Below the pieces are notes generated by a model that had not been told where the DNA came from, did not search any database, and saw only the letters and a list, made by a program, of their open reading frames with translations. Below, piece after piece: positions 28,980 to 56,400 of a stretch of DNA of 64,000 nt (positions are counted from its first letter, which is position 1; every line of letters begins with the position of its first letter). The stretch is taken from positions 1-64,000 of IMG/VR virus record IMGVR_UViG_3300045988_145627; one strand, written 5' to 3'. A program made the position numbers and the translations under genes. Source of the stretch: a virus. Its lineage: Duplodnaviria > Heunggongvirae > Uroviricota > Caudoviricetes.

Positions 28980-29303
28980 ATGTCGAACGAGATGGCGGGC
29001 GTTACAACAGAGCAAGTTGAGCGTATTGCCGCGATCGTTGCTCGGGAGGTTGTTGGCAAATTAGGTAAAGAGCTACGTGAAGAAATTGGCCAGGAGGTCA
29101 ATGATCAGCTGAAAACCTACTTTGGTGATATGACCCCGGCGCAACATAGTATTCAACACTCCAATCTGGACAAACTCCTTAACCGGTTAGATTCCATCTC
29201 AAGTGGGTTCTTTGGCGGCATTGTTTCTAAAATAACGTCGTTCATTATTACCGCACTGCTTTTGGGGTTAGCCGCGTATGGCGTAAAAAGTGGACTGCAA
29301 TAA
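28980..29303 (+). CDS. small membrane-anchored protein, holin/antiholin candidate
   Basis: ATG at 28980 with RBS ggagg; single C-terminal TM ITSFIITALLLGLAAYGV; heads lysis-cassette position. Confidence 0.35.
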   Translation: MSNEMAGVTTEQVERIAAIVAREVVGKLGKELREEIGQEVNDQLKTYFGDMTPAQHSIQHSNLDKLLNRLDSISSGFFGGIVSKITSFIITALLLGLAAYGVKSGLQ

Positions 29304-29316
29304 CAGGAGATCAAGG

Positions 29317-30009
29317 ATGAAGACTCCGAGAGGCATTCGTAATAATAACCCCGGTAATCTTGATAAAGGATCACCGTGGCAAGGTCTGGTTGCGAATCCA
29401 GACGAACCGCGCTTTTGCACGTTTAAAGACCCTGTTTGGGGGATTCGTGCGCTGGCGGTGACTCTAATTACCTACCACGATAAACGTCGCGCAAAAGACG
29501 GCACAAGTATCGATACCATTCGTGAAGTTATTGAACGCTGGGCACCGCCGAATGAAAACAATACTGACGCCTACATTAATGAGGTGTCTAAAGCCGTTGG
29601 TGTAACCGCAGACATGATCATCGATCTGCATGATTACGACATCCTTCGACCTTTGGTTGAGGCAATCATTCGCCACGAGAATGGCCGAGGCCCGCTAAAA
29701 ACGCTGAACACCTGGTATGCGGCAGAAGTTATTGAGGAAGGTCTGCGTCGAGCTGGCGTTGTTAAGCCGGTGAAAACCGTGAAGGCTGTTCCTGTAACTA
29801 AAGAAACTGCAGGCGCAACTGTTACAGCAGGTATTGGTCTGGCGCAGCTGGCCGATGTTATGCCGCAGGTTTCCGCTGCTATGGATAAGGCACAAGGTCA
29901 TATCTCTAGCGGGGATACAGTACGCATCATCTTCGGCATTGCCACTATTGTTGTGGCTGGATTCATTGCCTGGTCGCAGGTAAGAAGACACCAGAAAGGG
30001 ATGGTCTAA
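29317..30009 (+). CDS. putative endolysin/peptidoglycan hydrolase with C-terminal membrane anchor
   Basis: ATG at 29317 with RBS aggag; N-terminal RNNNPGNL motif; sits between membrane protein and spanins; enzymatic class not established. Confidence 0.4.
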   Translation: MKTPRGIRNNNPGNLDKGSPWQGLVANPDEPRFCTFKDPVWGIRALAVTLITYHDKRRAKDGTSIDTIREVIERWAPPNENNTDAYINEVSKAVGVTADMIIDLHDYDILRPLVEAIIRHENGRGPLKTLNTWYAAEVIEEGLRRAGVVKPVKTVKAVPVTKETAGATVTAGIGLAQLADVMPQVSAAMDKAQGHISSGDTVRIIFGIATIVVAGFIAWSQVRRHQKGMV

Positions 30010-30010
30010 T

Positions 30011-30262
30011 ATGCTAGGCAGCCTGATGACAAAGCTAAAAGTTGCTTTGATTACGCTGGCTGCCGTTCTTTTCGTTCTGGTCGGCGCTTACACGATGGGC
30101 GGAAATGCGGCGCGACGAGCAATGGAAGAGAAGGCAAAACAGGAAGACAGGAAACGACTTCAAAGCACATTGGACGTCAAAAATGAAACACTTGATGAGT
30201 TACGGAGCAAGGATGCTTCTACTGTTCATCATGAGTTGCACAATAAATGGTTGCGTGATTAA
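30011..30262 (+). CDS. i-spanin (Rz-like)
   Basis: N-terminal TM LKVALITLAAVLFVLVGAY followed by charged helical periplasmic segment. Confidence 0.6.
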   Translation: MLGSLMTKLKVALITLAAVLFVLVGAYTMGGNAARRAMEEKAKQEDRKRLQSTLDVKNETLDELRSKDASTVHHELHNKWLRD

Positions 30263-30413
30263 GCCTCAACCCGCTGGTGTGCTTTTCTGCGATGCGGCTA
30301 CACCGCTATACATCAGCCGTGATGATCTCATGACCGAAGAGACTGAAAGAGAGGTGCTTTTTCACAATATGATAGGGGAGCGATTGTGTGGATGGGGCAG
30401 AAAAGTACCATAA
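30183..30413 (+). CDS. o-spanin (Rz1-like), overlapping the i-spanin in +1 frame
   Basis: Signal peptide with candidate lipobox Cys (MLLLFIMSC or TINGC), proline-rich mature part with Cys residues; start uncertain (30183/30195/30213). Confidence 0.5.
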   Translation: MKHLMSYGARMLLLFIMSCTINGCVIKPQPAGVLFCDAATPLYISRDDLMTEETEREVLFHNMIGERLCGWGRKVP

Positions 30414-30590: not shown

Positions 30591-30974
30591 ATGCTGAACG
30601 AAAAACGTTCTATACAAACAATTCGCGATTGCACGAGTGTTATCGCAACTCATGTGCTGAATAAGCGCAAACTTGAGGTGCGTAAACTTAACAACGATGC
30701 GACTGCGCCAAAAGACACTCGCTTCATCGTAACTTTCAAAGACGATGTTGAGAATGCTGGTGCCAGTGTAAAACCGTTGGCTGAAGCGATTTTCCTGAAC
30801 GATCGTGTTCGTTTCATTGTGAAGCCAGCAAAACAATACCCTGAATTAGCACGGTTTAGTGACCAATTCTCTGAAATTATTGAGAGTGCAATTCGCCGCT
30901 TTCTTAATACTCATGGTAGCATTGTCAGCAATACAACTGCTGATGGTACTGCTCTAAGATGGCACCTACACTAG
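30591..30974 (+). CDS. hypothetical protein
   Basis: ORF with RBS aaggtgg. Confidence 0.4.
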   Translation: MLNEKRSIQTIRDCTSVIATHVLNKRKLEVRKLNNDATAPKDTRFIVTFKDDVENAGASVKPLAEAIFLNDRVRFIVKPAKQYPELARFSDQFSEIIESAIRRFLNTHGSIVSNTTADGTALRWHLH

Positions 30975-31711
30975 AACGCACATACTCTAAAAATCTTTAT
31001 GAGTTTCCTCACCGTGGGGAAACTCGCGTTTCACGTTTTGGCTACCTCATCAACGAAGCATCGCTTTTCAAAATATCTGAAATAACCATTATCGAGCCTG
31101 ATGATGATATCTGTCTGTATATCCTGATGGAGAAAGTTGGAGCACGAGATCAGGGTGAACTGATGGACTTCATTCTGGACAGAGGCGAAGATGGAATGTC
31201 TGATTCGGACATTATTCAAGCAATTCTGCGTTCCGACATGCTCGATCAGAGCAGAAACACGATAGCAGGCAGAATTGCCTTGCGTGAATACACATTCATC
31301 GAGGATGGGGTAGAGATTGACTGCTATCAGATTGCAGGTGTTGAAACAGAAAGAGCAATAAGGCAAAGGGGACTGTGCAACCTCACGTATCGCTTCCTCC
31401 TTCATTGGTACGAACATCTTGTCTGTGATTACAATCAGACCATTCCTGGCGCAAAAATCTGGGCCGGTCCATTAATGCGAACAGGTGATGTAAGAATTTA
31501 CAACGCAAAAACTGAGACGTTCGAGGATGTGTTAGGCGAATATGGGATGGGAAAAGAAACCGGCTTTTTGCCGTGGAACAGAGGATTGTTACTTGATCCA
31601 GAATTAAGCTCTTGGTTTCCAAATAAGGTGCAAGTTAACGTTGAGAAATTTATCGTACTTATCATCTCCCGCAAAACAAGAACCCCAGTTGGTTTATATC
31701 TAAAAGATTAA
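30959..31711 (+). CDS. hypothetical protein
   Basis: 250 aa ORF overlapping previous stop; followed by terminator. Confidence 0.45.
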   Translation: MAPTLERTYSKNLYEFPHRGETRVSRFGYLINEASLFKISEITIIEPDDDICLYILMEKVGARDQGELMDFILDRGEDGMSDSDIIQAILRSDMLDQSRNTIAGRIALREYTFIEDGVEIDCYQIAGVETERAIRQRGLCNLTYRFLLHWYEHLVCDYNQTIPGAKIWAGPLMRTGDVRIYNAKTETFEDVLGEYGMGKETGFLPWNRGLLLDPELSSWFPNKVQVNVEKFIVLIISRKTRTPVGLYLKD

Positions 31712-31887: not shown

Positions 31888-32556
31888 ATGACCAAGATCT
31901 TTGTGGTTGGCGGCACAAAGGGCGGGCCTGGCAAATCCACCGTTGCCCAGCAAATTGCCGTTTGCCTGAAAGTCAAAAAGAAGAAGAAGGTTTATATCAC
32001 TGATATAGATATTCAGCGCACGACAACAAGCTGGTGTGAAGACCGTCGACAGAACGAAGACCTTGAGCTGATTCCTTTTGCATACGTTCAGGATGACATC
32101 ATTAAGCACCTAAAATCGCTTCAGGGTAGAGCTGAGTTTGTAGTGGTAGATGCTGGTGGCTTTGACTCCGAAATTCAGCGACAAGCGATGCTGATGGCCG
32201 ACGTTATCATTATCCCGCTTCGTCCTAAGCGTCGTGATTTGAAATCTCTGCGTGACATCGATCCTATTATCGACAATGTTCGTAATGTAAACGATAAAGT
32301 GAAGGTCCGCGCGGTCATGAACCAGTGCCCGGCTTTGCCATCACAAGTGTCTCGCATTCTGGCGGCTAAAGAGATTGTCGAGACGTTTGGCATCGAGTCT
32401 GCGCCAGTCAATCTATATAACCGCAACGTCTACGATGATGCGGAAGAGTCTGGTCGTTCTATCTTTGAAATGACCGGTAGCGAGCGCGACAAAAAGGCGG
32501 AAGCCGAGTTTGAAGAATTTGTAGATTATCTGTTGAGTCTGGAGGAAGAAGAATAA
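31888..32556 (+). CDS. parA: ParA/Soj-family partition ATPase
   Basis: Deviant Walker A GGTKGGPGKST, Walker B-like FVVVDAGG; RBS aaggga. Confidence 0.85.
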   Translation: MTKIFVVGGTKGGPGKSTVAQQIAVCLKVKKKKKVYITDIDIQRTTTSWCEDRRQNEDLELIPFAYVQDDIIKHLKSLQGRAEFVVVDAGGFDSEIQRQAMLMADVIIIPLRPKRRDLKSLRDIDPIIDNVRNVNDKVKVRAVMNQCPALPSQVSRILAAKEIVETFGIESAPVNLYNRNVYDDAEESGRSIFEMTGSERDKKAEAEFEEFVDYLLSLEEEE

Positions 32557-32915
32557 TGTCCATGAAAATGGGTGACCTAGCAAAGCGCAAAGAGCCTGAT
32601 GCACCGGCCAAGAACACAACTCCTTTGCGCCAACCAGTCAGACCACAGGGACGCCCGACTCGTGGCAAAGAGAAAATTAAAAGCCGCACAATGTCACTGG
32701 AAGACGAATACTTCGAACTGCTGGAGATGATGAAGTTCATCCCTCGCTTCGAGAAATTCACCCGCTCTGATGTGATTCGTGCTGCTATTTTCCATCTTGC
32801 GGAGAAGACACCGCAGGAAATCGAGGACATCGTAAAGCTGAACGAGGCGATCACAGCTGCCGATGTCACGATGCGTACCGATGAAATTAAACGCGAGTTG
32901 ATGAAGAAAGGTTAA
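32556..32915 (+). CDS. small partition/centromere-binding protein (ParG/RHH-like), putative
   Basis: Start overlaps parA stop (TAATG); basic disordered N-terminus and short helical C-terminus. Confidence 0.45.
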   Translation: MSMKMGDLAKRKEPDAPAKNTTPLRQPVRPQGRPTRGKEKIKSRTMSLEDEYFELLEMMKFIPRFEKFTRSDVIRAAIFHLAEKTPQEIEDIVKLNEAITAADVTMRTDEIKRELMKKG

Positions 32916-32966
32916 TAATGTGGGCTGTCTAGCCCACATTATTTTAATTAAAGTGGAGTGATAATT

Positions 32967-33719
32967 ATGCATTCGTTAGTATTTGCATTTAAAAACATAC
33001 TCAAGAATGTTATAAACATACTAGGGATGTTAAATATTTTTTTGTCTGTGAGGGTGAGGAGAAAAGATATAAAAGATAAAATAAAGGAACTTAACAAAGA
33101 AAAAGAACAATTAAAAAGCGAAGAAATTATTATTGATTTATACAAGAAAAAACTCGCATCTAGCAAGGGGAAAGCTAATGATAAAATCAAAGGAAAAATT
33201 ATTCACTATATTATTGCTAGAGAGTTGGGGAATGATCCTGATAATGAAGATTTTCGACATAATCTTTTTACAAAGATAAAAGAATCAGAAGAACAGGTTG
33301 AAGTTCTGGTTCATCAAAGAGAAGTAAGTGAGCAGGCGAACAAAAAAGAAACGGTTGTCAATTTGTTTTTATTGTATGAAAAAAATAAATTGTTTAAAGC
33401 TAAGGGGTTGGCTGTGTTTCTTATAGTTATAAACTTAATTATAGTTGCGACTCTCGATCTTCCAGCTTGGTCATTGATTATAAGTTTTTTTATTCTCTCT
33501 TTGATTATGTTGAAAGATCAGATACTTACTATTCGTGTCTCTAAAGGATATTTTGGCACAAGTGCGTATGAAGCGGTTCAATTGCTTAAATTCATCAGAG
33601 AAAATTCAGACAAATTTGACTCAGATGATAATGACGGTAGCCCACGACGGATATTGAATCCGAAGGGAACAACAAAAAAATCAGACAACCTATTCGATAA
33701 AGGGTGGCAAAATGTTTGA
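32967..33719 (+). CDS. A+T-rich membrane protein of unknown function
   Basis: ATG at 32967 with RBS aagtggag; N-terminal hydrophobic segment, Lys/Glu-rich helix, two adjacent TM helices (LAVFLIVINLIIVATL, SLIISFFILSLIML). Confidence 0.5.
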   Translation: MHSLVFAFKNILKNVINILGMLNIFLSVRVRRKDIKDKIKELNKEKEQLKSEEIIIDLYKKKLASSKGKANDKIKGKIIHYIIARELGNDPDNEDFRHNLFTKIKESEEQVEVLVHQREVSEQANKKETVVNLFLLYEKNKLFKAKGLAVFLIVINLIIVATLDLPAWSLIISFFILSLIMLKDQILTIRVSKGYFGTSAYEAVQLLKFIRENSDKFDSDDNDGSPRRILNPKGTTKKSDNLFDKGWQNV

Positions 33720-34134
33720 CCTTGACGCCATCACTAAGTTCTTAAATCAGTGTTTTGATCTACTTTTGCTCAAGCAGCCTTTAAGAACTGTTTTCGGAAT
33801 ACTGATTGGTTTCATTATTTTTGTTTTTGTTTACACGTTTAGGTTTGCGATAGCTCAAGATTTTTATGAAATAGATGGCGTGCATTACGCTGCATGTTTC
33901 GTCATCGGTGTTTTAGTTGTTCACACAAGAACATTTTTTGACGTTATCAAGGGCACCGCAGTTGATGAAGAAATAGATAGTATGATCAGAGTTATTACGA
34001 AGCAGCCACACCTATCTAACCATCAAAAAAACATAATGATTGCTGAAATACTTCAAAAAGAAATTGCAGCCATAAGTCAAAAGAGATTGGATAAAGTTGC
34101 ACAAGAAATGACGGAGAAAAAGACAACTGATTAA
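33712..34134 (+). CDS. A+T-rich membrane protein of unknown function
   Basis: Start overlaps previous gene by 8 nt; two TM helices (VFGILIGFIIFVFVYTF, AACFVIGVLVVHT). Confidence 0.5.
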   Translation: MFDLDAITKFLNQCFDLLLLKQPLRTVFGILIGFIIFVFVYTFRFAIAQDFYEIDGVHYAACFVIGVLVVHTRTFFDVIKGTAVDEEIDSMIRVITKQPHLSNHQKNIMIAEILQKEIAAISQKRLDKVAQEMTEKKTTD

Positions 34135-34142
34135 TTTAATTA

Positions 34143-34197
34143 CCTGTTTCTGTATATAAATAATAAGTAACTTATTAAATATATATACGGAAGCAGG
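34143..34197. promoter_or_regulatory. 55-bp imperfect palindromic element, copy B
   Basis: Near-identical to 2211-2265. Confidence 0.6.
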
Positions 34198-36448: not shown

Positions 36449-37702
36449 GTGGAGAACACCTCCACGCTTGATTCATTGGTGAAACAACTTTTCTTTTGCC
36501 AAACCACAAAAGAAAAACACATGAGCCTTTATGTTATATCAACATTTAGGTTGGTCACAATATTGCCTGTTAAAAGTGGAATTATCGTGAGCGAGCTGAA
36601 AGAGATAATTACCGAATTAGATTTTGAACAATGGTTGGACACTGAAGGTATCGTTTATCGACGTGGAGGCGTGAGTTCTCGCGGTCGTGAAGTGAATATC
36701 AAAGAGTGTCCGGTATGCGGCAGCTCCAACTGGAAGGTATATTTCAATCTGACCAGTGGCGTCGGCAAATGCTTTGCTGGTGATCATCCCGAAGAGATTC
36801 AGTTCAATAAGCTGGTCTTCCTCAAGCACTACAGCGGTAAATCACGACGACAGTTCGAGGAATATGTGCAGAACGCTCTTCTTTCCCAGGGGTGGGCACC
36901 AAAGAAAGAAGAGATAGTGCTTACAAGCACAGTCGAGTTAGAGGGACCACTTGCACTCCCTCGTCATTACGAACTTCCTATAGATGGCCGTCTTCCAGAC
37001 TATCTGGTTGAACGAAACATATCGCCTGAAATGGCAAAGTATTTTGACCTACGATACTGCGTCGAAGGCAAGCACGCTTATGTAGATCCGTATACAGATC
37101 AGGTAAAAGGACAGATATTCGATATGCGAGTACTGATACCGGTTTACGATCTGGATGGGGTAATGAAGACATTTCAGGGACGAGACATTACCGGTACAGC
37201 AGACCGCCGCTACCTCTTTCCTATGCAGCTTCCAGCTTCAGGTAAGTTTCTCTACAACGGCCATAATGCAGTTGGCAAACAGACTGTAGTTGTCTGTGAG
37301 GGGGCGTTCGATGTTATGGGAGTTAAACGAGCTATTTTTGATGAAGAAACATTACGTGATTACGTGGAACCGATAGGAACGTTCGGGATGCATCTATCTG
37401 GTAACACCACTCAGGATGCAGAAGATCAGTTAGGCGCGTTCCTGACGCTCAAGGCGCGTGGGTTACGTAATGTGATCATGATGTGGGATAGTGAAAAGCA
37501 AGCTATACGCAACACGATGGCCGCAGCCAGGCGATTGACCAGTATTGGTCTTAATGTCAAAGTTGCGTGTTTGGGCGAGGAAGGACTCGACCCCGGCGAT
37601 GCGACACCGGGGCAGATTATCAAAGCCTACTATTGCGCAAAACCTTACTCACGACAGCTTGAACTTTTAAGCAAGGTAAAAGGTATAGCAGCATTAGTTT
37701 GA
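36449..37702 (+). CDS. DNA primase (zinc-ribbon plus TOPRIM)
   Basis: CPVCGSSNWKV...GKCFAGDH zinc ribbon; TOPRIM VVVCEGAFDVMG and MMWDSE; true start uncertain. Confidence 0.7.
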   Translation: MENTSTLDSLVKQLFFCQTTKEKHMSLYVISTFRLVTILPVKSGIIVSELKEIITELDFEQWLDTEGIVYRRGGVSSRGREVNIKECPVCGSSNWKVYFNLTSGVGKCFAGDHPEEIQFNKLVFLKHYSGKSRRQFEEYVQNALLSQGWAPKKEEIVLTSTVELEGPLALPRHYELPIDGRLPDYLVERNISPEMAKYFDLRYCVEGKHAYVDPYTDQVKGQIFDMRVLIPVYDLDGVMKTFQGRDITGTADRRYLFPMQLPASGKFLYNGHNAVGKQTVVVCEGAFDVMGVKRAIFDEETLRDYVEPIGTFGMHLSGNTTQDAEDQLGAFLTLKARGLRNVIMMWDSEKQAIRNTMAAARRLTSIGLNVKVACLGEEGLDPGDATPGQIIKAYYCAKPYSRQLELLSKVKGIAALV

Positions 37703-38731
37703 ACCAGTATTAGTCACGTAAACATTGACCGAAAATGATTTAACTTCTGTGTTGAAGTTGTCAGTCATTACCGCGAGGTAGGCATTCTTGGTATCTCTGA
37801 ATTGCTTCAGGATGATTTGAACGTTATCGGTGCAAACAAACGAGGTAGCCAGATTGCCTCCTTTCTCTGAAAAATCCTTTAGGAAAGTGCAGTCAATTTT
37901 GCCATCATTAGCGGTGAAGGTGGCATCATCACCCTGCCAGGTAAATGTTGCGTTAACGCCTTTATCAATGGATTTAGCAATAAGTCGTTGAGTGGAGGAT
38001 TTTGCTTTAGATCTTGCAGCTGATGGTTGGTATTTACCGCTTTCTTTTAGTTCTGCAATGTAATCACAGCCATTTTTATCTTCTTTATCGCAAGCTGCCT
38101 GATAAAGCTCAGCTGCTTTTTTATAATCTTTTTTAACCCCTTCACCATACTCATACATAATGCCAAGATTCGCCAATGCAGATGCACTGCCTAGTTCGAT
38201 TCCTTTTTTATAATACTCTATTGCCTTTTTGTAGCTTTTTGGCACGCCTGCGCCAACATAATATAACTGTCCTAAATATGACGCAGATTCAGGGTCGCCA
38301 GCCTCTACTGCAAGTTTGTGATATTTCAGGGAAAGTTTTTGGTCTTTCTTACCCGCAAGTCCTTTATGATAAATAACACCCAGATTGTGATAAGAGTTGC
38401 CTCCAGCTGCATCACCAGCTTTCTTAAAGAGTTCCTCTGCCTTTTTGAAATTTTTATCAACCCCATACCCAAGGGCATACATTATACCTAGAGCATTAAA
38501 CGCTTCTTTGTTCCCCTTAGAAGTCGCCAGTTCAAGCCATTTTCTGGCTTCATCGTAGTTTTTTTCGACACCATGAATACCTTTCATATAGTCGATACCT
38601 AAAGCACTCTGTGACTCAACGTCGCCTGCTTTTGCCGCATCGATCAGCTTTTGTATTTCATAGGCATGTGCACTCCCCGAAACAAGTAATAGCGACAACA
38701 TAAAGAAAGATATTGGTTTGAAATGTTTCAT
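37694..38731 (-). CDS. secreted Sel1-repeat (TPR-like) protein
   Basis: Signal peptide MKHFKPISFFMLSLLLVSGSAHA; repeated Sel1-like units ending ...YYKKA/ELYQ.. Confidence 0.75.
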   Translation of the reverse strand: MKHFKPISFFMLSLLLVSGSAHAYEIQKLIDAAKAGDVESQSALGIDYMKGIHGVEKNYDEARKWLELATSKGNKEAFNALGIMYALGYGVDKNFKKAEELFKKAGDAAGGNSYHNLGVIYHKGLAGKKDQKLSLKYHKLAVEAGDPESASYLGQLYYVGAGVPKSYKKAIEYYKKGIELGSASALANLGIMYEYGEGVKKDYKKAAELYQAACDKEDKNGCDYIAELKESGKYQPSAARSKAKSSTQRLIAKSIDKGVNATFTWQGDDATFTANDGKIDCTFLKDFSEKGGNLATSFVCTDNVQIILKQFRDTKNAYLAVMTDNFNTEVKSFSVNVYVTNTGSN

Positions 38732-43053: not shown

Positions 43054-43266
43054 ACACAACAGGAAAGAGCATTGAGAACCGCCGAGACTGCACTGTTTGA
43101 AGCGTAAGTCCGTGCAAACGTCATACAGTGCTCTTTTCGTTGTGGTGAATGCGGCTAAGCGCACGCGGGGAAATGGTTATATTGATCCTTTGTGATGTCT
43201 ATTGGCTCCGTCCACGGTGGATAACCAGCCAAAGGACACCGGGAAGCACCCGGCACCATAACAATT

Positions 43267-43353
43267 GGAGAGTAGGGAGCATGGTGCTCAAGCGGTCTTG
43301 AAAACCGTCCCATTGCGCAAGCGATGATGGTTCGATTCCATTACTCTCCGCCA
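43267..43353 (+). tRNA. tRNA-Ser (anticodon TGA), type II with long variable arm
   Basis: Acceptor GGAGAGT/ACTCTCC, anticodon loop CTTGAAA, T arm GATGG-TTCGATT-CCATT, 3' GCCA. Confidence 0.8.
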
Positions 43354-43508
43354 GACACAGCGTTGAGCGGTTTGGCCTTTTAATCAACTCGATTAAGACT
43401 CCGCTAACATAAACCAGACCGCTCAACGCTGTGATAGACAATTACGGCAGACGTTCTTAACCATAGCTTGCTAACATCCTAGCAACACTTTTTTTCAGCG
43501 CAAAATTC

Positions 43509-43532
43509 AAAGGGGCTTCGGCCCCTTTTTTG
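43509..43532. terminator. bidirectional intrinsic terminator
   Basis: AGGGGC-ttcg-GCCCCT flanked by A-run upstream and T-run downstream; between convergent tRNA locus and minus-strand gene. Confidence 0.7.
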
Positions 43533-43548
43533 AAAGCAATGGGCAAGT

Positions 43549-44883
43549 TCATGCCAAATTATCCAGATTTCTTTTCTTTTGTTCAATTATATTTCTCGCG
43601 CCAGAAAAAATTTTACTCAAAATAATTGATTTGCTTGCTCTATTATTAAGATGTAACAACGCGCTATAAAATACATAGTTATCTATTTTACTATTTAAAG
43701 TATTCCCAAGCTTCCCGTCATATATGCTATTAATAGTATTAAAATATACATGTTCAGGACCTATATTACAAATACCCCTATCAACTCGCTTTAAATAATG
43801 TTTAACTAAAGAAATAGCATCTTCCTTATCATTAATAACATAAAGTCCTGAGCGTTTACCCAGTTTGCTGTTCGAGAGCAATTTACAACCTACAAGCTCA
43901 CTTAACGTATCTTCAAAATTTTTCAACTCTTTGTCGGCGTTTTCCAGATAATGCTCAATCTCTTTCTCCATATTACTTATTAGAGAATTAAATTCTGCTC
44001 GTAACAAATCACCACCAGGTGATTTATAACTCCATAAAATTGAATTGGTAATACGTACTACGTCAGATACTTCTGGTTTCTCTGAATAGTTTTTGTATCT
44101 AGTGCAAATAATGCTGTGCTTTATATATTCTCTAACTAATGATCGATAATCCCTTTCGAAAAGGGTTTTGACATCTAGTCTTCCATTGCTTGTTGTTATT
44201 AGTGTGGTATTTAAAACTGGGTCGCCTTCAAAAAAATTATATTTATTTAGTAATCGTTTTAGCTTGTGTGAATTATGTGATGTTTCGCCATAATAATTTA
44301 GCCCAAAAATAGCAATTATTAGCATAACATCAGGAGTGATGAAATGTCGTAATTGCTCGGCATAAACTTTTTTCTCTTCGATTTTCGAAGATGGAGAGTA
44401 AAAACCTTTGTCTATATATTCTAATATTGAAACAATATTACTAACATAACGTATAAAAACTTGATTCATTACAACGGAACCATAAACCTGATGCAAATAA
44501 TCTACTCTCAAGTTGTTTTTTATTTTTTCCCCTGTGCTAGATGATAACTCTTCTTTTACCTGCCCAAGTAGCTTTTCGTGGTGCTCCAGCAATGTTTTAA
44601 ACCATTGTTCAAATGATGATTTTCTTGCCTCAGTTAATGAATCTGATGTTATCTGGACAGCTTTCATAGCTGCTTTCGCACTTTTCTTTGCTTCATAAGC
44701 GTTCCATGCTGTAGCACAAAAAGCTGCCGCCGTGATGCAACTGGTAAAAATAGAAATCCTATCTGCAACATTCAAGCTCCAGAACCAATCAGACGATGAA
44801 ATCAAAACCACAGATATTACGGGAACAATGAAAATCAAAACAGGCATGTATGTACTCGCTCTAATAGTTATTAGTCGAGGCAA
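43549..44883 (-). CDS. A+T-rich membrane-anchored protein of unknown function (candidate exclusion/abortive-infection factor)
   Basis: 444 aa; N-terminal TM helices (MPVLIFIVPVISVVLISS, ISIFTSCITAAAFCATAW), large soluble C-terminal domain; composition differs visibly from flanks. Confidence 0.55.
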   Translation of the reverse strand: MPRLITIRASTYMPVLIFIVPVISVVLISSSDWFWSLNVADRISIFTSCITAAAFCATAWNAYEAKKSAKAAMKAVQITSDSLTEARKSSFEQWFKTLLEHHEKLLGQVKEELSSSTGEKIKNNLRVDYLHQVYGSVVMNQVFIRYVSNIVSILEYIDKGFYSPSSKIEEKKVYAEQLRHFITPDVMLIIAIFGLNYYGETSHNSHKLKRLLNKYNFFEGDPVLNTTLITTSNGRLDVKTLFERDYRSLVREYIKHSIICTRYKNYSEKPEVSDVVRITNSILWSYKSPGGDLLRAEFNSLISNMEKEIEHYLENADKELKNFEDTLSELVGCKLLSNSKLGKRSGLYVINDKEDAISLVKHYLKRVDRGICNIGPEHVYFNTINSIYDGKLGNTLNSKIDNYVFYSALLHLNNRASKSIILSKIFSGARNIIEQKKRNLDNLA

Positions 44884-45025
44884 ATATTATATAAATCTCG
44901 TTATGATTTACAGACATGTATACGTATTGCTAATTATCACCAACAAATGATAGGTGTGTACATATTTATCATTTGTTGTAAAATTAATGTATACGCTATG
45001 AATACACTAATAATATGAGGTAATC

Positions 45026-45271
45026 ATGACTATCGTTATCTACGGACGAGATAACTGTTCATACTGCAAACGTGCGGTCGAGCTGGCGAAGCAACTAAAG
45101 GGACATGGCTACGGTGATTATGAGTACATCGACATCACCACTGCTGGTATCGACAAGGAAAAACTTAGTGAAATTGTTGGTAAACCGGTAGAGACTATCC
45201 CCCAGGTACTGATCGATGGCCAACCGATTGGCGGATACACAGAACTGGCTGCATACGTCAGCACCCTCTGA
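45026..45271 (+). CDS. glutaredoxin-like protein (NrdH/Grx)
   Basis: CSYC active-site motif near N-terminus, about 80 aa; RBS gaggt. Confidence 0.8.
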   Translation: MTIVIYGRDNCSYCKRAVELAKQLKGHGYGDYEYIDITTAGIDKEKLSEIVGKPVETIPQVLIDGQPIGGYTELAAYVSTL

Positions 45272-45276
45272 TTTTA

Positions 45277-45300
45277 ACGGCTCACAGGAGCCGTTTTTTA
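45277..45300 (+). terminator. intrinsic terminator
   Basis: CGGCTC-acag-GAGCCG followed by TTTTTT. Confidence 0.7.
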
Positions 45301-45482
45301 TTCCCACCAAACTCACACCTGTTTCCCTTAAAATTCAAAAAACAACATCTAAATGATTCCATACCTACTATGTATGGAATCATTACTGAAAATGAGTTAC
45401 TTTTACTCTTGATCCTATAAGAATCTATGCCTAATATACTGTTTACTTATACAGTGCATCGGCGTAACTCGGTGATTGTCAT

Positions 45483-46586
45483 ATGAAAAATAGCTTTGAC
45501 AGAGCACGCGCTGCGGAGAACACCTCAAAAGAGGCGATTGAGTATCTCGAAAGAGCATCTCAAATGCAGGCCGTTATGATCTCCCAGGTCAGCAATGACA
45601 TGAGATTCTCGGACGCATTCATGTTATTCACTCGCTTATCTCTGCTGATAACAAGACGTCGGCCAGAGATCGCTGTTCATTGTATTTTGATACATGTTTT
45701 GCCGCACATTGCCGATGTAAAAGTAAGTGATATTAATAGGTTCATGGTGAACCAACTGGTCAACCCACTAATACTGGATGGCAAAATTGTTATGGGTCGC
45801 CGCGTTTTCTCTCTGATGAAGCAGTTCCTCAGCTGGTGCGCCTTCCAGGGGATGATCGACGTGTCACCGTTAAACGATATGTCACTTAACAAAGTTGCCG
45901 GTGGCGCAAAGCCCACACCTCGCGAGCGGAAGCTAACCGACGCAGAGGTATGGGTGTTCTGGAATATATGGGACTACTTCAATGTGTGTGCTGGTACAAA
46001 ATGGGCGGCCAGGCTATGTCTTGTATCCGCAAGACGACCTGACGAAGTACTGCGGGCTAAAAAAAGTGAGTTCAACCTCCAGCGTGGGGTTTGGAATCAA
46101 GGCAAGAGAAACAAATCAGCCCGTGAGCATTCTCTGCCTTTAAGCACATTAATGCGCACATGCATTGAAGAGTTATTCGAATATGGTAAAGGCAGCCAGT
46201 GGCTTGTGCCTTCGAATAAAAAAATCGGGAAAGATCTTCCGATGTCTAAAGTGGCAATAGCCCAGGCATTACGCCGTATCCTGGAACGACCAGAACTGAT
46301 GGAGCTTGAGCCATTTACACCACGAGATTTGCGTCGTACTGCGCGTAGTTACTTCCCAGCATTAGGCATAAGCCAGGAGGTATCACGTAAAATCATGAAC
46401 CACAGTCTTGAGGGGATAGATCGGGTCTACGACCGGCACGATTATATGGACGAGATGCGAGACGCCTTAGAAAGTTTCTCGACGTACATCGCATCAATCG
46501 TAGAGCAACCGGATTTAGACGAAATTGACCACAAATTCAAGGGAGATCGTCTATCGACAGAGCTTATTCGTGTAAATTTTTCATAG
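45483..46586 (+). CDS. tyrosine recombinase (integrase/resolvase family)
   Basis: C-terminal catalytic region with RRPDE..., FTPRDLRRTARS, NHSLEG..RVYDRHDY (Tyr nucleophile context). Confidence 0.7.
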   Translation: MKNSFDRARAAENTSKEAIEYLERASQMQAVMISQVSNDMRFSDAFMLFTRLSLLITRRRPEIAVHCILIHVLPHIADVKVSDINRFMVNQLVNPLILDGKIVMGRRVFSLMKQFLSWCAFQGMIDVSPLNDMSLNKVAGGAKPTPRERKLTDAEVWVFWNIWDYFNVCAGTKWAARLCLVSARRPDEVLRAKKSEFNLQRGVWNQGKRNKSAREHSLPLSTLMRTCIEELFEYGKGSQWLVPSNKKIGKDLPMSKVAIAQALRRILERPELMELEPFTPRDLRRTARSYFPALGISQEVSRKIMNHSLEGIDRVYDRHDYMDEMRDALESFSTYIASIVEQPDLDEIDHKFKGDRLSTELIRVNFS

Positions 46587-54668: not shown

Positions 54669-54807
54669 ACAAAGCGAACACCATGAAGGTGGCCAAAGAG
54701 CAAAGAGTTTATGGAAGTAAACAAGATTGGCGATGTGAGACAGTACAGGCTGAAGCGCCAGACCAGAGTCACGCTATCCAATATTTTTGGTAAGAAAGTC
54801 GCCTAAT

Positions 54808-54836
54808 GAAAAGCTCGTCAATTGACGAGCTTTTCA
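54808..54836. terminator. bidirectional intrinsic terminator between convergent genes
   Basis: GAAAAGCTCGTC-aatt-GACGAGCTTTTC. Confidence 0.7.
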
Positions 54837-54841
54837 TTTGA

Positions 54842-55840
54842 CTATCTTGAATTAGGGGCTTTCTCTATAATTATTCGATTCAGAATATGATTACGATCAC
54901 TGTATGGTTCGAAATGTTCTGCAATCGAGTATGAACCGACACTACGTGCGACCACATCTTCAAAATATTCAAGGATTTTAGGTAGATACTTTTCATAATT
55001 TTGTGAACAAATCGACACTACAGGATCGAATTCTACTAATCGACGCTTTACACGTATATGGTTATTTATTTTTTCATATTCATTCATCATAGAGTTCAAG
55101 TCTGGTACTACCCGCTCAGGGCTACACAGGTAGGTGCTGCGGTCATACTCGTCTCCGAATTTATCAAGAGGAACACCTATCTCTAGCAACGTCTTGTTTA
55201 CTCGCTTTGCAAGCTCAATTATCTCTTTATCTTCTTCTGTAAGCCACATGTCGACCCACTTTTGTTTGTCTGCCCATTCAGACAGATAATCATCCTTATT
55301 GAAAGTTACAGGAGCACATCCAGAGTCACTTCTTAATGCTTTATCCTTTATTTTAGAAATTGTTTTTTTATCTAAATGCTTCCAATAAATAGCAGGTTCG
55401 TCTAATTCATTATCATCGTGTAGGCATATCAAAACAATTACCACAGGAAAATCACAACTTCCCCAATAGGTTATATTTTTATAAGGTATTTGTACGCTTA
55501 ACCTTCTCTTCATTTTGCGTGAGGTGGTTTTTATCTGAACGCCGATAAAAAAACCTGTCGAAAGATTATTTTCATATATTTCAACCTGAGCATCCAATCC
55601 CATATCAATATCTAGCAATCGACAAGGCCATCTGAAATAACGAGAAATCCAATAGGCAAACAAGTACTCTCCAGCGTGTCCATCCGCACTGGTTTTCGGA
55701 TATGTCATACCTTCAGTTTTATTCTTTTCTGCCGCTGGCTTTACAGACTTAGCTTTTGGGGGGAGGGCTGTTTTTTTAGTCGGCACTGACTTTGTTGCTT
55801 TGACTTGTTTGTTAGCCTTATCCATTGGTTTTATTCTCAA
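54842..55840 (-). CDS. A+T-rich protein with Lys-rich N-terminus and PD-(D/E)xK-like nuclease-fold motifs (DUF4365-like, from memory)
   Basis: GHAGEYLFAYWISRYF...LDIDMGLDAQVEIYENN...GFFIGVQIKT pattern; opposite strand to flanking replication genes. Confidence 0.45.
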   Translation of the reverse strand: MRIKPMDKANKQVKATKSVPTKKTALPPKAKSVKPAAEKNKTEGMTYPKTSADGHAGEYLFAYWISRYFRWPCRLLDIDMGLDAQVEIYENNLSTGFFIGVQIKTTSRKMKRRLSVQIPYKNITYWGSCDFPVVIVLICLHDDNELDEPAIYWKHLDKKTISKIKDKALRSDSGCAPVTFNKDDYLSEWADKQKWVDMWLTEEDKEIIELAKRVNKTLLEIGVPLDKFGDEYDRSTYLCSPERVVPDLNSMMNEYEKINNHIRVKRRLVEFDPVVSICSQNYEKYLPKILEYFEDVVARSVGSYSIAEHFEPYSDRNHILNRIIIEKAPNSR

Positions 55841-55968
55841 TTTGCTTTGCTCGGTGTGCCTCCTGATTCTGCACCTTAGCGCCGATACTGTCTACCGCCA
55901 ATCATGACAGTAAAGCTCTATTTGTTTGATATAATCAGATACACGAAAGTAAGTTTGAGCATATCAAT

Positions 55969-56400
55969 ATGAACACCGATATTTACGAGAAAATAATGTC
56001 TGATCTCGAGTTTGACAGAGACAATCTGGAAGACGTCTGGCGTAAACAACCTCGCCTGTTGATGGAGTATGGTTCAAAGCTCGCCCATGCAGAAAGAAGT
56101 GTCGCAGAGGCAAAACTTAACCTTGAAGCTGTTGAAGCAAAGCTATACGACACAGAGCGTAAAAACTTGAGTATGAACGGCATTAAGTTTAACGAATCTG
56201 TACTAGACGCTAAGGTTAAAACAAACCCACAGTATCTGTCTAAACGGCAAAAGTTGGATGAAGCACGGCACATCGCAGACATATACAAACATGCTGTCGC
56301 CGCCTTTTCGCATCGCCGAGACATGATCGTTCAGGCGTCGAAGATGGCTATCGTTGAATTAGAGCGATTAGGCTCTGAACGCTTTATTACTCCCCGTTGA
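55969..56400 (+). CDS. hypothetical coiled-coil protein
   Basis: 143 aa ORF. Confidence 0.4.
   Translation: MNTDIYEKIMSDLEFDRDNLEDVWRKQPRLLMEYGSKLAHAERSVAEAKLNLEAVEAKLYDTERKNLSMNGIKFNESVLDAKVKTNPQYLSKRQKLDEARHIADIYKHAVAAFSHRRDMIVQASKMAIVELERLGSERFITPR

Follow-up and report, generated by a model that had tools for sequence, protein, structure and literature searches.

The window analyzed here, positions 1–64,000 of the IMG/VR virus record IMGVR_UViG_3300045988_145627, carries at positions 32,967–34,134 a cassette of two overlapping open reading frames (ORFs), ORF1 and ORF2. The two genes are an obligate pair, they move horizontally between unrelated temperate elements, and in SSU5-like phage-plasmids they occupy a slot that exchanges its cargo between closely related genomes. 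Both products are predicted to be two-helix membrane proteins without a described family. With confidence just short of even, we favor a reading of the cassette as self-contained mobile cargo of a defense hotspot, encoding an anti-phage pair that would act at the membrane.

The window itself is, judged by its sequence, an SSU5-like phage-plasmid with Escherichia coli as host. The flanks shared 97–98% identity with three Escherichia phages (Cyrano, PhiR41_1, and CMS-2020a) and 82% with Salmonella phage SSU5, which points to this assignment, and each of the four phages aligned to the window in two blocks, skipping the cassette. The features that define the slot and its cargo in the window are as follows (aa, amino acids).

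31,888–32,556, plus strand: parA, a ParA/MipZ-type partition ATPase, first gene of the par operon (Pfam MipZ 7e-14 and AAA_31 9e-14; PHROG 164, ParA-like, 4e-51)
32,556–32,915, plus strand: parG-like gene, 119 aa (phrog_5111 1.5e-79; no match in Pfam), whose stop codon is the left edge of the slot
32,914–32,943, unstranded: hairpin with a 13-bp stem directly 3' of the parG-like stop codon (−18.5 kcal/mol, z = −4.7 against shuffled controls)
32,967–33,719, plus strand: ORF1, 250 aa, predicted membrane effector of the pair (phrog_22270 6e-115)
33,712–34,134, plus strand: ORF2, 140 aa, obligate small membrane partner (phrog_17322 2e-68)
34,143–34,197, unstranded: 55-bp imperfect palindrome, the right edge of the slot (−26.1 kcal/mol, z = −7.4 against shuffled controls)

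The segment between the parG-like stop codon and the palindrome is a variable cargo hotspot. In an alignment of six elements, homology ended exactly at the stop codon and restarted at the palindrome. Five states of the slot were distinguished. The pair stands alone in the window, in pRM13322 (100% identical), in five other E. coli plasmids, in Enterobacter hormaechei pMS-37c, and in many Klebsiella plasmids. A DUF2971 gene stands alone in Cyrano and LF82. In SSU5, the slot contains DUF2971 behind a version of the pair that has diverged strongly (SSU5_035/036), and its first gene starts 2 nucleotides (nt) after the parG-like stop codon. Three E. coli plasmids carry a reverse-strand gene of 255 aa that was identified as PD-T4-3 (PADLOC 1.1e-23, GIY-YIG domain), and one plasmid carries a reverse-strand gene of 357 aa without known function; a motif search placed both of these cargos between the same two landmarks. 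The DUF2971 protein of Cyrano, LF82, and SSU5 corresponds to the PADLOC candidate system PDC-S31 (2e-33), and a 2025 preprint independently lists PD-T4-3 among the defense systems of SSU5-like elements of E. coli and Shigella (10.1101/2025.09.12.675607). This cargo marks the slot as a defense-gene hotspot, and the bearing of that association on the pair is suggestive only.

The census of the slot was based on tblastn counts and on nine inspected slots out of approximately 797 plasmids. The parG-like gene was found in 797 plasmids, mostly at identities of at least 90%. ORF1-type genes were detected in 74 plasmid records and ORF2-type genes in 73, with nearly the same taxon counts, corresponding to about 9% of the plasmids with the parG-like gene. 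Only seven of 5426 complete E. coli genomes contained the cassette, which was always plasmid-borne. A query combining cassette and palindrome matched 779 plasmids, most of them over the conserved 3' part only. The original prediction had asked whether the cassette is variably present among related phage-plasmids, and the comparison revealed that it is: close relatives carry other cargo at the same position, and there is no universal presence in synteny.

Two annotations deposited for this region of Cyrano (L001, 2613–3416) look wrong. The parG-like gene, CYRAN_29, is labeled "RelE/ParE putative toxin," and the DUF2971 gene, CYRAN_30, was given a TTG start that overlaps a hairpin, whereas its SSU5 homologue starts at the methionine of MLYKYVG.

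Both members of the cassette are real plus-strand genes. The start of ORF1 is most likely the ATG at 32,967, because GGAG lies 8 nt upstream and both RefSeq and a 51-member protein cluster (P0001) use the same ATG. The length of 253 aa given earlier for ORF1 derives from an alternative upstream GTG at 32,958; the 140 aa given for ORF2 stood. The two ORFs overlap by 8 nt, with the ATG of ORF2 lying over the stop codon of ORF1 (ATGTTTGA), and the translational coupling proposed for them is therefore plausible. The pair begins 51 nt downstream of the par genes, with only the hairpin in between.

Composition sets the cassette apart from the backbone, as the original prediction had proposed. The GC (guanine plus cytosine) content was 0.313 for ORF1 and 0.352 for ORF2, and that of third codon positions was 0.291 and 0.333, respectively, versus 0.47–0.49 and 0.51–0.57 for parA, the parG-like gene, the helicase gene (dnaB), and a conserved 249-aa gene. 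Only 0.6% of stretches of the same length in the 64 kb were equally A+T-rich. Since the bias is visible at synonymous sites, it is not explained by amino acid composition alone. The described placement between the partition and replication modules was correct overall, except that the 249-aa gene intervenes between the cassette and dnaB.

Word-seeded searches returned a handful of enterobacterial homologues, all of them unnamed proteins. A full HMMER profile search with ORF1 returned 362 representative clusters (E ≤ 1e-3), 40 of them at E ≤ 1e-10, and the region common to all was only the C-terminal ~120 residues. This module comprises a juxtamembrane helix with the consensus K-N-E-T-V-V-N-L-F-L-L-x-E-K-x-K-L, two hydrophobic helices, a segment with the consensus L-K-D-Q-x-L-T-Y-R-V-x-K-G-Y-F-G-x-N-x-x-E-A-x-Q-L-x-K-F-I-x-x-N-x-D, and finally an acidic glycine-rich loop followed by R-K-I-L-N. 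The motif R[VI]..G[YF]FG lies ~60 residues before the C-terminus in 44 of 54 aligned members; its exact pattern was not found in the other 10. The N-termini differ: most members have one to four extra transmembrane (TM) helices, the window has a long charged helix, and protein P0074 has an EAD1 domain (34.2 bits, cutoff 24.2) fused to the ORF1-type module. EAD1 has been described as an adaptor recruiting effectors to conflict systems and treated alongside the pore-forming two-TM effectors of the SLATT type (Kaur et al. 2020, PMC7159879). Pfam found no EAD in the ORF1 of the window. Named members of the family come from chromosomes of Enterobacter, Pantoea, and Lelliottia and from a metagenome-assembled genome of Candidatus Electrothrix, nearly all annotated as "hypothetical protein."

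Pairing was without exception. All 25 loci inspected had a short gene behind the ORF1-type gene, with its start overlapping the ORF1-type stop codon. Profile searches assigned this gene to the ORF2 type in each of the 21 loci to which they were applied; the remaining four, more remote loci confirm the arrangement but not the homology, and three of these four end at a contig end. An hhalign comparison of the ORF2 family with the partner of the EAD1 homologue gave a probability of 91%. ORF1 and ORF2 are thus an obligate pair. The locus with the EAD1 homologue (L018, 6001–8796) continues behind the homologue and its partner with genes for a 231-aa protein without a family match and a 296-aa pentapeptide-repeat protein.

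The statement that no motif of a described family was recognizable survived the database searches. Pfam, NCBIfam, PADLOC, and PDB gave no consistent match for ORF1, ORF2, or the 54 remote homologues, nor did family profiles find anything in PDB; the sole library matches were the two PHROGs listed above, which have no functional annotation. A match of ORF2 to DUF575 (E = 0.071, below the cutoff) was rejected as a low-complexity helix, as were PADLOC matches to PDC-M02B (0.0024), JetC (0.02), and LeoBC. A scan of GTDB representative genomes confirmed no locus; it was seeded with the module profile, the full-length alignment being too divergent as a seed. No paper describing the pair was found in the literature, and the surveys of hotspots and phage-plasmids are silent on it. 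In a study of the K. pneumoniae plasmid p2, protection by an SSU5-like plasmid was ascribed to a restriction–modification system (PMC8969562). Within the known category of hotspot cargo of prophages and phage-plasmids, the pair is, by these sequence comparisons, a new and undescribed family.

The same pair was found in several genomic contexts. Besides SSU5-like loci (L004–L007, L011–L013, L021), it lies between P2 gpS-like and gpV-like genes (L008–L010, L014, L015; genes recognized by eye from translations). Locus L016 has it next to a gpD-like tail gene, in surroundings of 60% GC, and in L020, a short metagenomic contig, it follows a RusA-like gene. Loci L018 and L026 belong to elements that encode Prim-Pol, AAA_25, and an integrase or else resolvases. 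The GC content of the cassette was 0.31–0.38 in all contexts, and that of flanks longer than 1 kb was 0.43–0.60, except in two loci: L017 had a right flank at 0.37, and in L018 the host DNA on both sides is at 0.37–0.38. The pair is therefore a horizontally mobile module that is A+T-rich wherever its flanks are GC-richer. Its earlier description as a horizontally acquired moron is supported by the composition anomaly, the variable presence, and the occurrence in unrelated temperate elements.

Evolutionary rates were estimated from the window and pMS-37c. The ratio of nonsynonymous to synonymous divergence (dN/dS) was 0.21 for ORF1 and 0.26 for ORF2, indicating real, selected genes, and 0.03–0.05 for parA, the parG-like gene, and the 249-aa gene. 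The dN of the pair (0.13–0.14) was two- to six-fold higher than that of the flanking genes (0.02–0.07), whereas its dS was lower (0.5–0.7 versus 1.0–1.5). The lower dS fits a more recent exchange of the cassette, and codon bias may contribute. Between the window and Klebsiella-type elements, the pair retained 41–51% protein identity and the ParG-like protein 92–95%.

Distribution and selection together bear on the most mundane explanations, namely that the pair is a housekeeping membrane anchor for partition or replication or that the two ORFs are non-functional A+T-rich sequence. The position between partition and replication modules agrees with an anchor, but ~91% of elements sharing these par and rep genes lack the pair, and prophages without par genes have it; a partition role was rejected on this distribution. 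Spurious ORFs are ruled out by purifying selection and by conservation across the 362 clusters. We assign these explanations a next to negligible probability.

Proximity to the par genes also raises the question of addiction, in which ORF2 would be the labile or cognate antidote to a membrane toxin, ORF1, and post-segregational killing would stabilize the element. The pair directly follows parA and the parG-like gene, its genes overlap and always occur together, and a toxin–antitoxin pair sits in a neighboring variable slot of relatives. Furthermore, ORF1 is sometimes frameshifted and ORF2 never: among ~41 Klebsiella records, ORF1 was recovered in two tblastn pieces in 15, and ORF2 was intact in all. 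This frameshift evidence may, however, be sequencing error. In the one case examined, pKPHS1 of K. pneumoniae (L003 3615–4381 compared with L011 4602–5369), the ORF1 homologue is split by a 1-nt deletion in an A5 run, and a statement that ORF1 is often a pseudogene in Klebsiella was downgraded because this case is a single-base homopolymer deletion. Addiction also agrees poorly with the distribution, as more than 90% of SSU5-like plasmids lack the pair, and the same pair lies among tail genes of integrated P2-like prophages, where plasmid addiction is irrelevant, and beside the RusA-like gene. The gene order, with the larger, putative toxin gene first, is atypical but compatible with addiction. 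Taken together, we consider addiction quite unlikely.

The slot left of parA (window 30,591–31,711, compared with L001 472–1306 and L022 1716–2514) is a second variable slot of these elements. In the window, pRM13322, pMS-37c, and SSU5, it contains two plus-strand ORFs (127 and 250 aa) without a match in Pfam or PADLOC; in Cyrano and pLF82-type plasmids, it contains a reverse-strand toxin–antitoxin pair of the GNAT (KacT-like)/DUF1778 type.

The architecture of the two proteins was predicted from hydropathy (Kyte–Doolittle) and AlphaFold2 (AF2) secondary structure, with confidence given as the predicted local distance difference test (pLDDT). ORF1 falls into two parts.

32,967–33,338, plus strand: ORF1 residues 1–124, the variable N-terminal part, with an amphipathic or hydrophobic first helix and then a long Lys/Glu-rich helix; poorly conserved (AF2 helix, pLDDT < 50)
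33,339–33,716, plus strand: ORF1 residues 125–250, the conserved module with invariant columns, comprising the juxtamembrane helix (NKKETVVNLFLL.EKNKL.KAK), helix 147–163, DLPA turn, helix 168–182, LKDQ.LT.RVSKGYFG..A.EA.QLLKFIREN.DKFD, and the acidic Gly-rich loop

The paired hydrophobic helices and the Lys/Glu-rich helical segment of ORF1 (approximately residues 30–125) reported earlier were both recovered. In ORF1, the DLPA turn separates the two hydrophobic helices, and pLDDT reached ~70–79 over residues 130–210. In ORF2, hydrophobic helices at residues 26–48 and 58–76 are separated by an acidic 9-residue loop, and the C-terminus is predicted to be a long cytoplasmic helix. Lys and Arg are concentrated on the outer sides of both hairpins, with none in the loops; under the positive-inside rule, this distribution would orient both proteins in the inner membrane with cytoplasmic N- and C-termini, leaving predicted periplasmic loops of only ~4 (ORF1) and ~9 (ORF2) residues. 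The helices of ORF1 are short (15–17 residues) and may form a re-entrant hairpin instead. Two motif assignments for ORF1 were rejected. A K+-channel-like "GYG" filter does not apply, as GYFG follows the second helix in the cytoplasm and does not lie between the helices, and the acidic Gly-rich loop misfits the EF-hand consensus.

Small inner-membrane proteins with two TM helices are familiar among phages: class II holin/antiholin pairs and SieB of P22 and lambda are of this kind, and some form restraining pairs, as might ORF1 and ORF2. A role in the element's own lytic cycle, either as a holin/antiholin-like pair that times lysis or as a membrane scaffold in replication or assembly, would agree with the class II holin topology and with the location of the pair, which in both the window and P2-like prophages follows lysis genes at a distance of a few kb; holin and antiholin entries were also among the non-significant BFVD matches (E > 0.5). 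Yet the window already has endolysin and spanin genes (29,290–30,413) in a separate block ~3 kb upstream, with four genes between, and close relatives lyse without the pair. The pair is dispensable and variably present, being swapped for a nuclease-type defense gene in the same slot. Neither protein matched any Pfam family, holin and SieB families included, the two PHROGs are functionally unannotated, and ORF1 is larger than such proteins and has long cytoplasmic domains. A lytic-cycle role is thus very unlikely.

Prophage membrane proteins can also protect a lysogen without killing it; T4 Imm and P22 SieA are small proteins that block an entry step. In superinfection exclusion (Sie) of this type, the pair would block DNA entry or another early membrane step of related phages. 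Both proteins are small and predicted to reside in the inner membrane, they occur in temperate elements at a place where expression in the lysogen is possible, they diverge rapidly, as would be expected in an arms race with the entry machinery of phages, and they share a hotspot with defense genes. What speaks against a passive block is the EAD1 fusion, which suggests a triggered effector, and the layout of the proteins: the periplasmic loops are very short, and a strictly conserved large cytoplasmic C-terminal module together with a cytoplasmic partner domain is not obviously needed for a block on the periplasmic side. Neither ORF1 and ORF2 nor the 54 members resembled known Sie families in Pfam. 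Exclusion without cell death is therefore unlikely.

Among characterized systems, the pair would work most like membrane effectors of the SLATT or Rex type, being a member of neither. SLATT-type proteins are modular effectors built, as predicted for ORF1, around a membrane hairpin of two helices with cytoplasmic helices on either side, and EAD1, an adaptor of such conflict systems, is fused to one ORF1 homologue. Burroughs and colleagues reportedly described SLATT-type domains in 2015 as effectors of nucleotide- and NTPase-centered conflict systems. In contrast, no SLATT match in Pfam was found for the 54 members (E ≤ 0.1) or ORF1 (E ≤ 1), the neighborhoods inspected contained no SMODS, SLOG, TIR, GTPase, or nucleotide-signal/NTPase core genes, and the ORF1 family has two features of its own, an invariable second, dedicated membrane protein and a conserved GYFG-containing C-terminal domain. 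The lambda pair RexA/RexB likewise consists of two temperate-phage genes with presumed expression in the lysogen and a membrane component proposed to depolarize the cell on superinfection. Of these two, RexA is cytoplasmic and RexB a channel with four TM helices, in contrast to ORF1 and ORF2, which are both predicted two-helix hairpin membrane proteins, and PADLOC gave no Rex match. PD-T4-3 and DUF2971/PDC-S31 resemble the pair in being interchangeable cargo of the identical slot in sister phage-plasmids; PD-T4-3 is a single soluble protein of the GIY-YIG type, and neither it nor DUF2971 has membrane segments or sequence similarity to the pair.

We favor a membrane-acting defense pair because the cassette is dispensable, mobile, fast-evolving cargo of foreign composition in a defense slot and because one homologue is fused to EAD1. 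The original prediction had named superinfection exclusion, abortive infection, or a membrane-acting toxin/immunity pair; the direction of defense is supported by PD-T4-3 and PDC-S31 as alternative cargo of the slot, by EAD1 on one distant homologue, and by faster evolution of the pair than of the backbone, which makes the function plausible but falls short of proof. In the mechanism we propose, the pair would be transcribed by read-through from the par operon while the element is kept as a plasmid, because it lies so close downstream of the par genes with only a hairpin in between, and translational coupling would yield ORF1 and ORF2 in matched amounts. Both proteins would insert in the inner membrane as helical hairpins with cytoplasmic termini. 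The effector module of ORF1 would consist of the short two-helix hairpin and the conserved GYFG-containing C-terminal domain, its variable N-terminus would serve as the regulatory or sensing part, and ORF2 would be the cognate partner that restrains or gates it. Infection by a competing phage or other mobile element would release or rearrange ORF1, which would then permeabilize or depolarize the membrane, so that the invader is aborted or excluded.

Several observations weigh against a membrane-acting defense pair. Hotspots also hold counter-defense genes and other cargo. PADLOC-DB v2 yielded nothing consistent across the 54 members, and thus no homology-based link to any tested defense protein. 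The EAD1 fusion was seen in one of the 54 members scanned, and no second EAD1 protein or EAD1-bearing partner was found near it. AF2 modeled the two proteins with low confidence (pLDDT 57 and 66), and the models retrieved nothing but generic helical hairpins in fold searches. Promoter and terminator consensus scans at the cassette did not rise above shuffled background, so that none could be assigned with confidence. Finally, the split ORF1 genes of Klebsiella may be explained by a cost of ORF1, by recurrent inactivation or phase variation, or by homopolymer sequencing error.

The landmarks on either side of the slot were compared between elements. The hairpin reported after the parG-like gene is present and probably works as a weak terminator or an attenuator separating the par genes from the cargo; it scored as terminator-like on the minus strand only. 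Hairpins of differing sequence occur at the equivalent place in pMS-37c, L011, L006, and Cyrano, and none in SSU5. The palindrome was rightly described as the right boundary and as one of two copies; it is conserved backbone and not part of the cassette. It is kept in the window, Cyrano, SSU5, pMS-37c, L011, and L006 and in the plasmids with PD-T4-3 or 357-aa cargo, and was present in every SSU5-like element compared. The second copy lies at 2206–2265 of the window; both copies are intergenic, with folding energies of −26 and −29 kcal/mol. Candidate roles of the palindrome are those of a terminator, an operator, or a centromere-like site.

Other A+T-rich or accessory loci were seen elsewhere in the window. 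The most A+T-rich island (43,104–45,569, minimum GC 0.319) may be another defense-type moron. It contains a minus-strand ORF of 444 aa (43,549–44,883) with N-terminal hydrophobic segments and a borderline Pfam match to putAbiC (PF16872, 22 bits, equal to the cutoff), beside a glutaredoxin-like ORF and an integrase-like ORF (45,483–46,586). A third A+T-rich island (54,803–56,033) contains a minus-strand ORF (54,842–55,840) for a 332-aa DUF4365 protein (Pfam 9.6e-16) that also matches the PADLOC model of an Argonaute-associated restriction endonuclease (1.7e-10). A minus-strand gene at 37,694–38,731, immediately beyond the primase gene where the DNA is moderately A+T-rich (GC ~0.40), is possibly accessory as well; its 345-aa product has a hydrophobic, signal-like segment at the N-terminus and contains five Sel1 repeats (Pfam 1e-37).

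It is conceivable, at a confidence somewhat below even, that the pair is the founding example of an undescribed family of two-component, purely membrane-embedded anti-phage systems, in which a hairpin effector with a GYFG domain would be gated by a two-TM partner. The family would comprise a minimal 1.2-kb cassette that spreads among phage-plasmids, P2-like prophages, and other mobile elements, and a module that in some bacteria has been recruited via EAD1 into larger NTPase conflict systems. The slot is a compact, sharply bounded hotspot that exchanges defense cargo in SSU5-like phage-plasmids, which clinical E. coli, Klebsiella, Salmonella, and Shigella commonly carry, and the predicted pair of two-TM proteins is among the smallest candidate systems of the slot, without annotation in any library searched. 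If protective, the pair would represent a new membrane-acting defense family and a tractable 1.2-kb two-gene model of how a membrane effector is restrained. It would then also help to explain the persistence of phage-plasmids in clinical lineages and altered phage susceptibility, which would be relevant to phage therapy.

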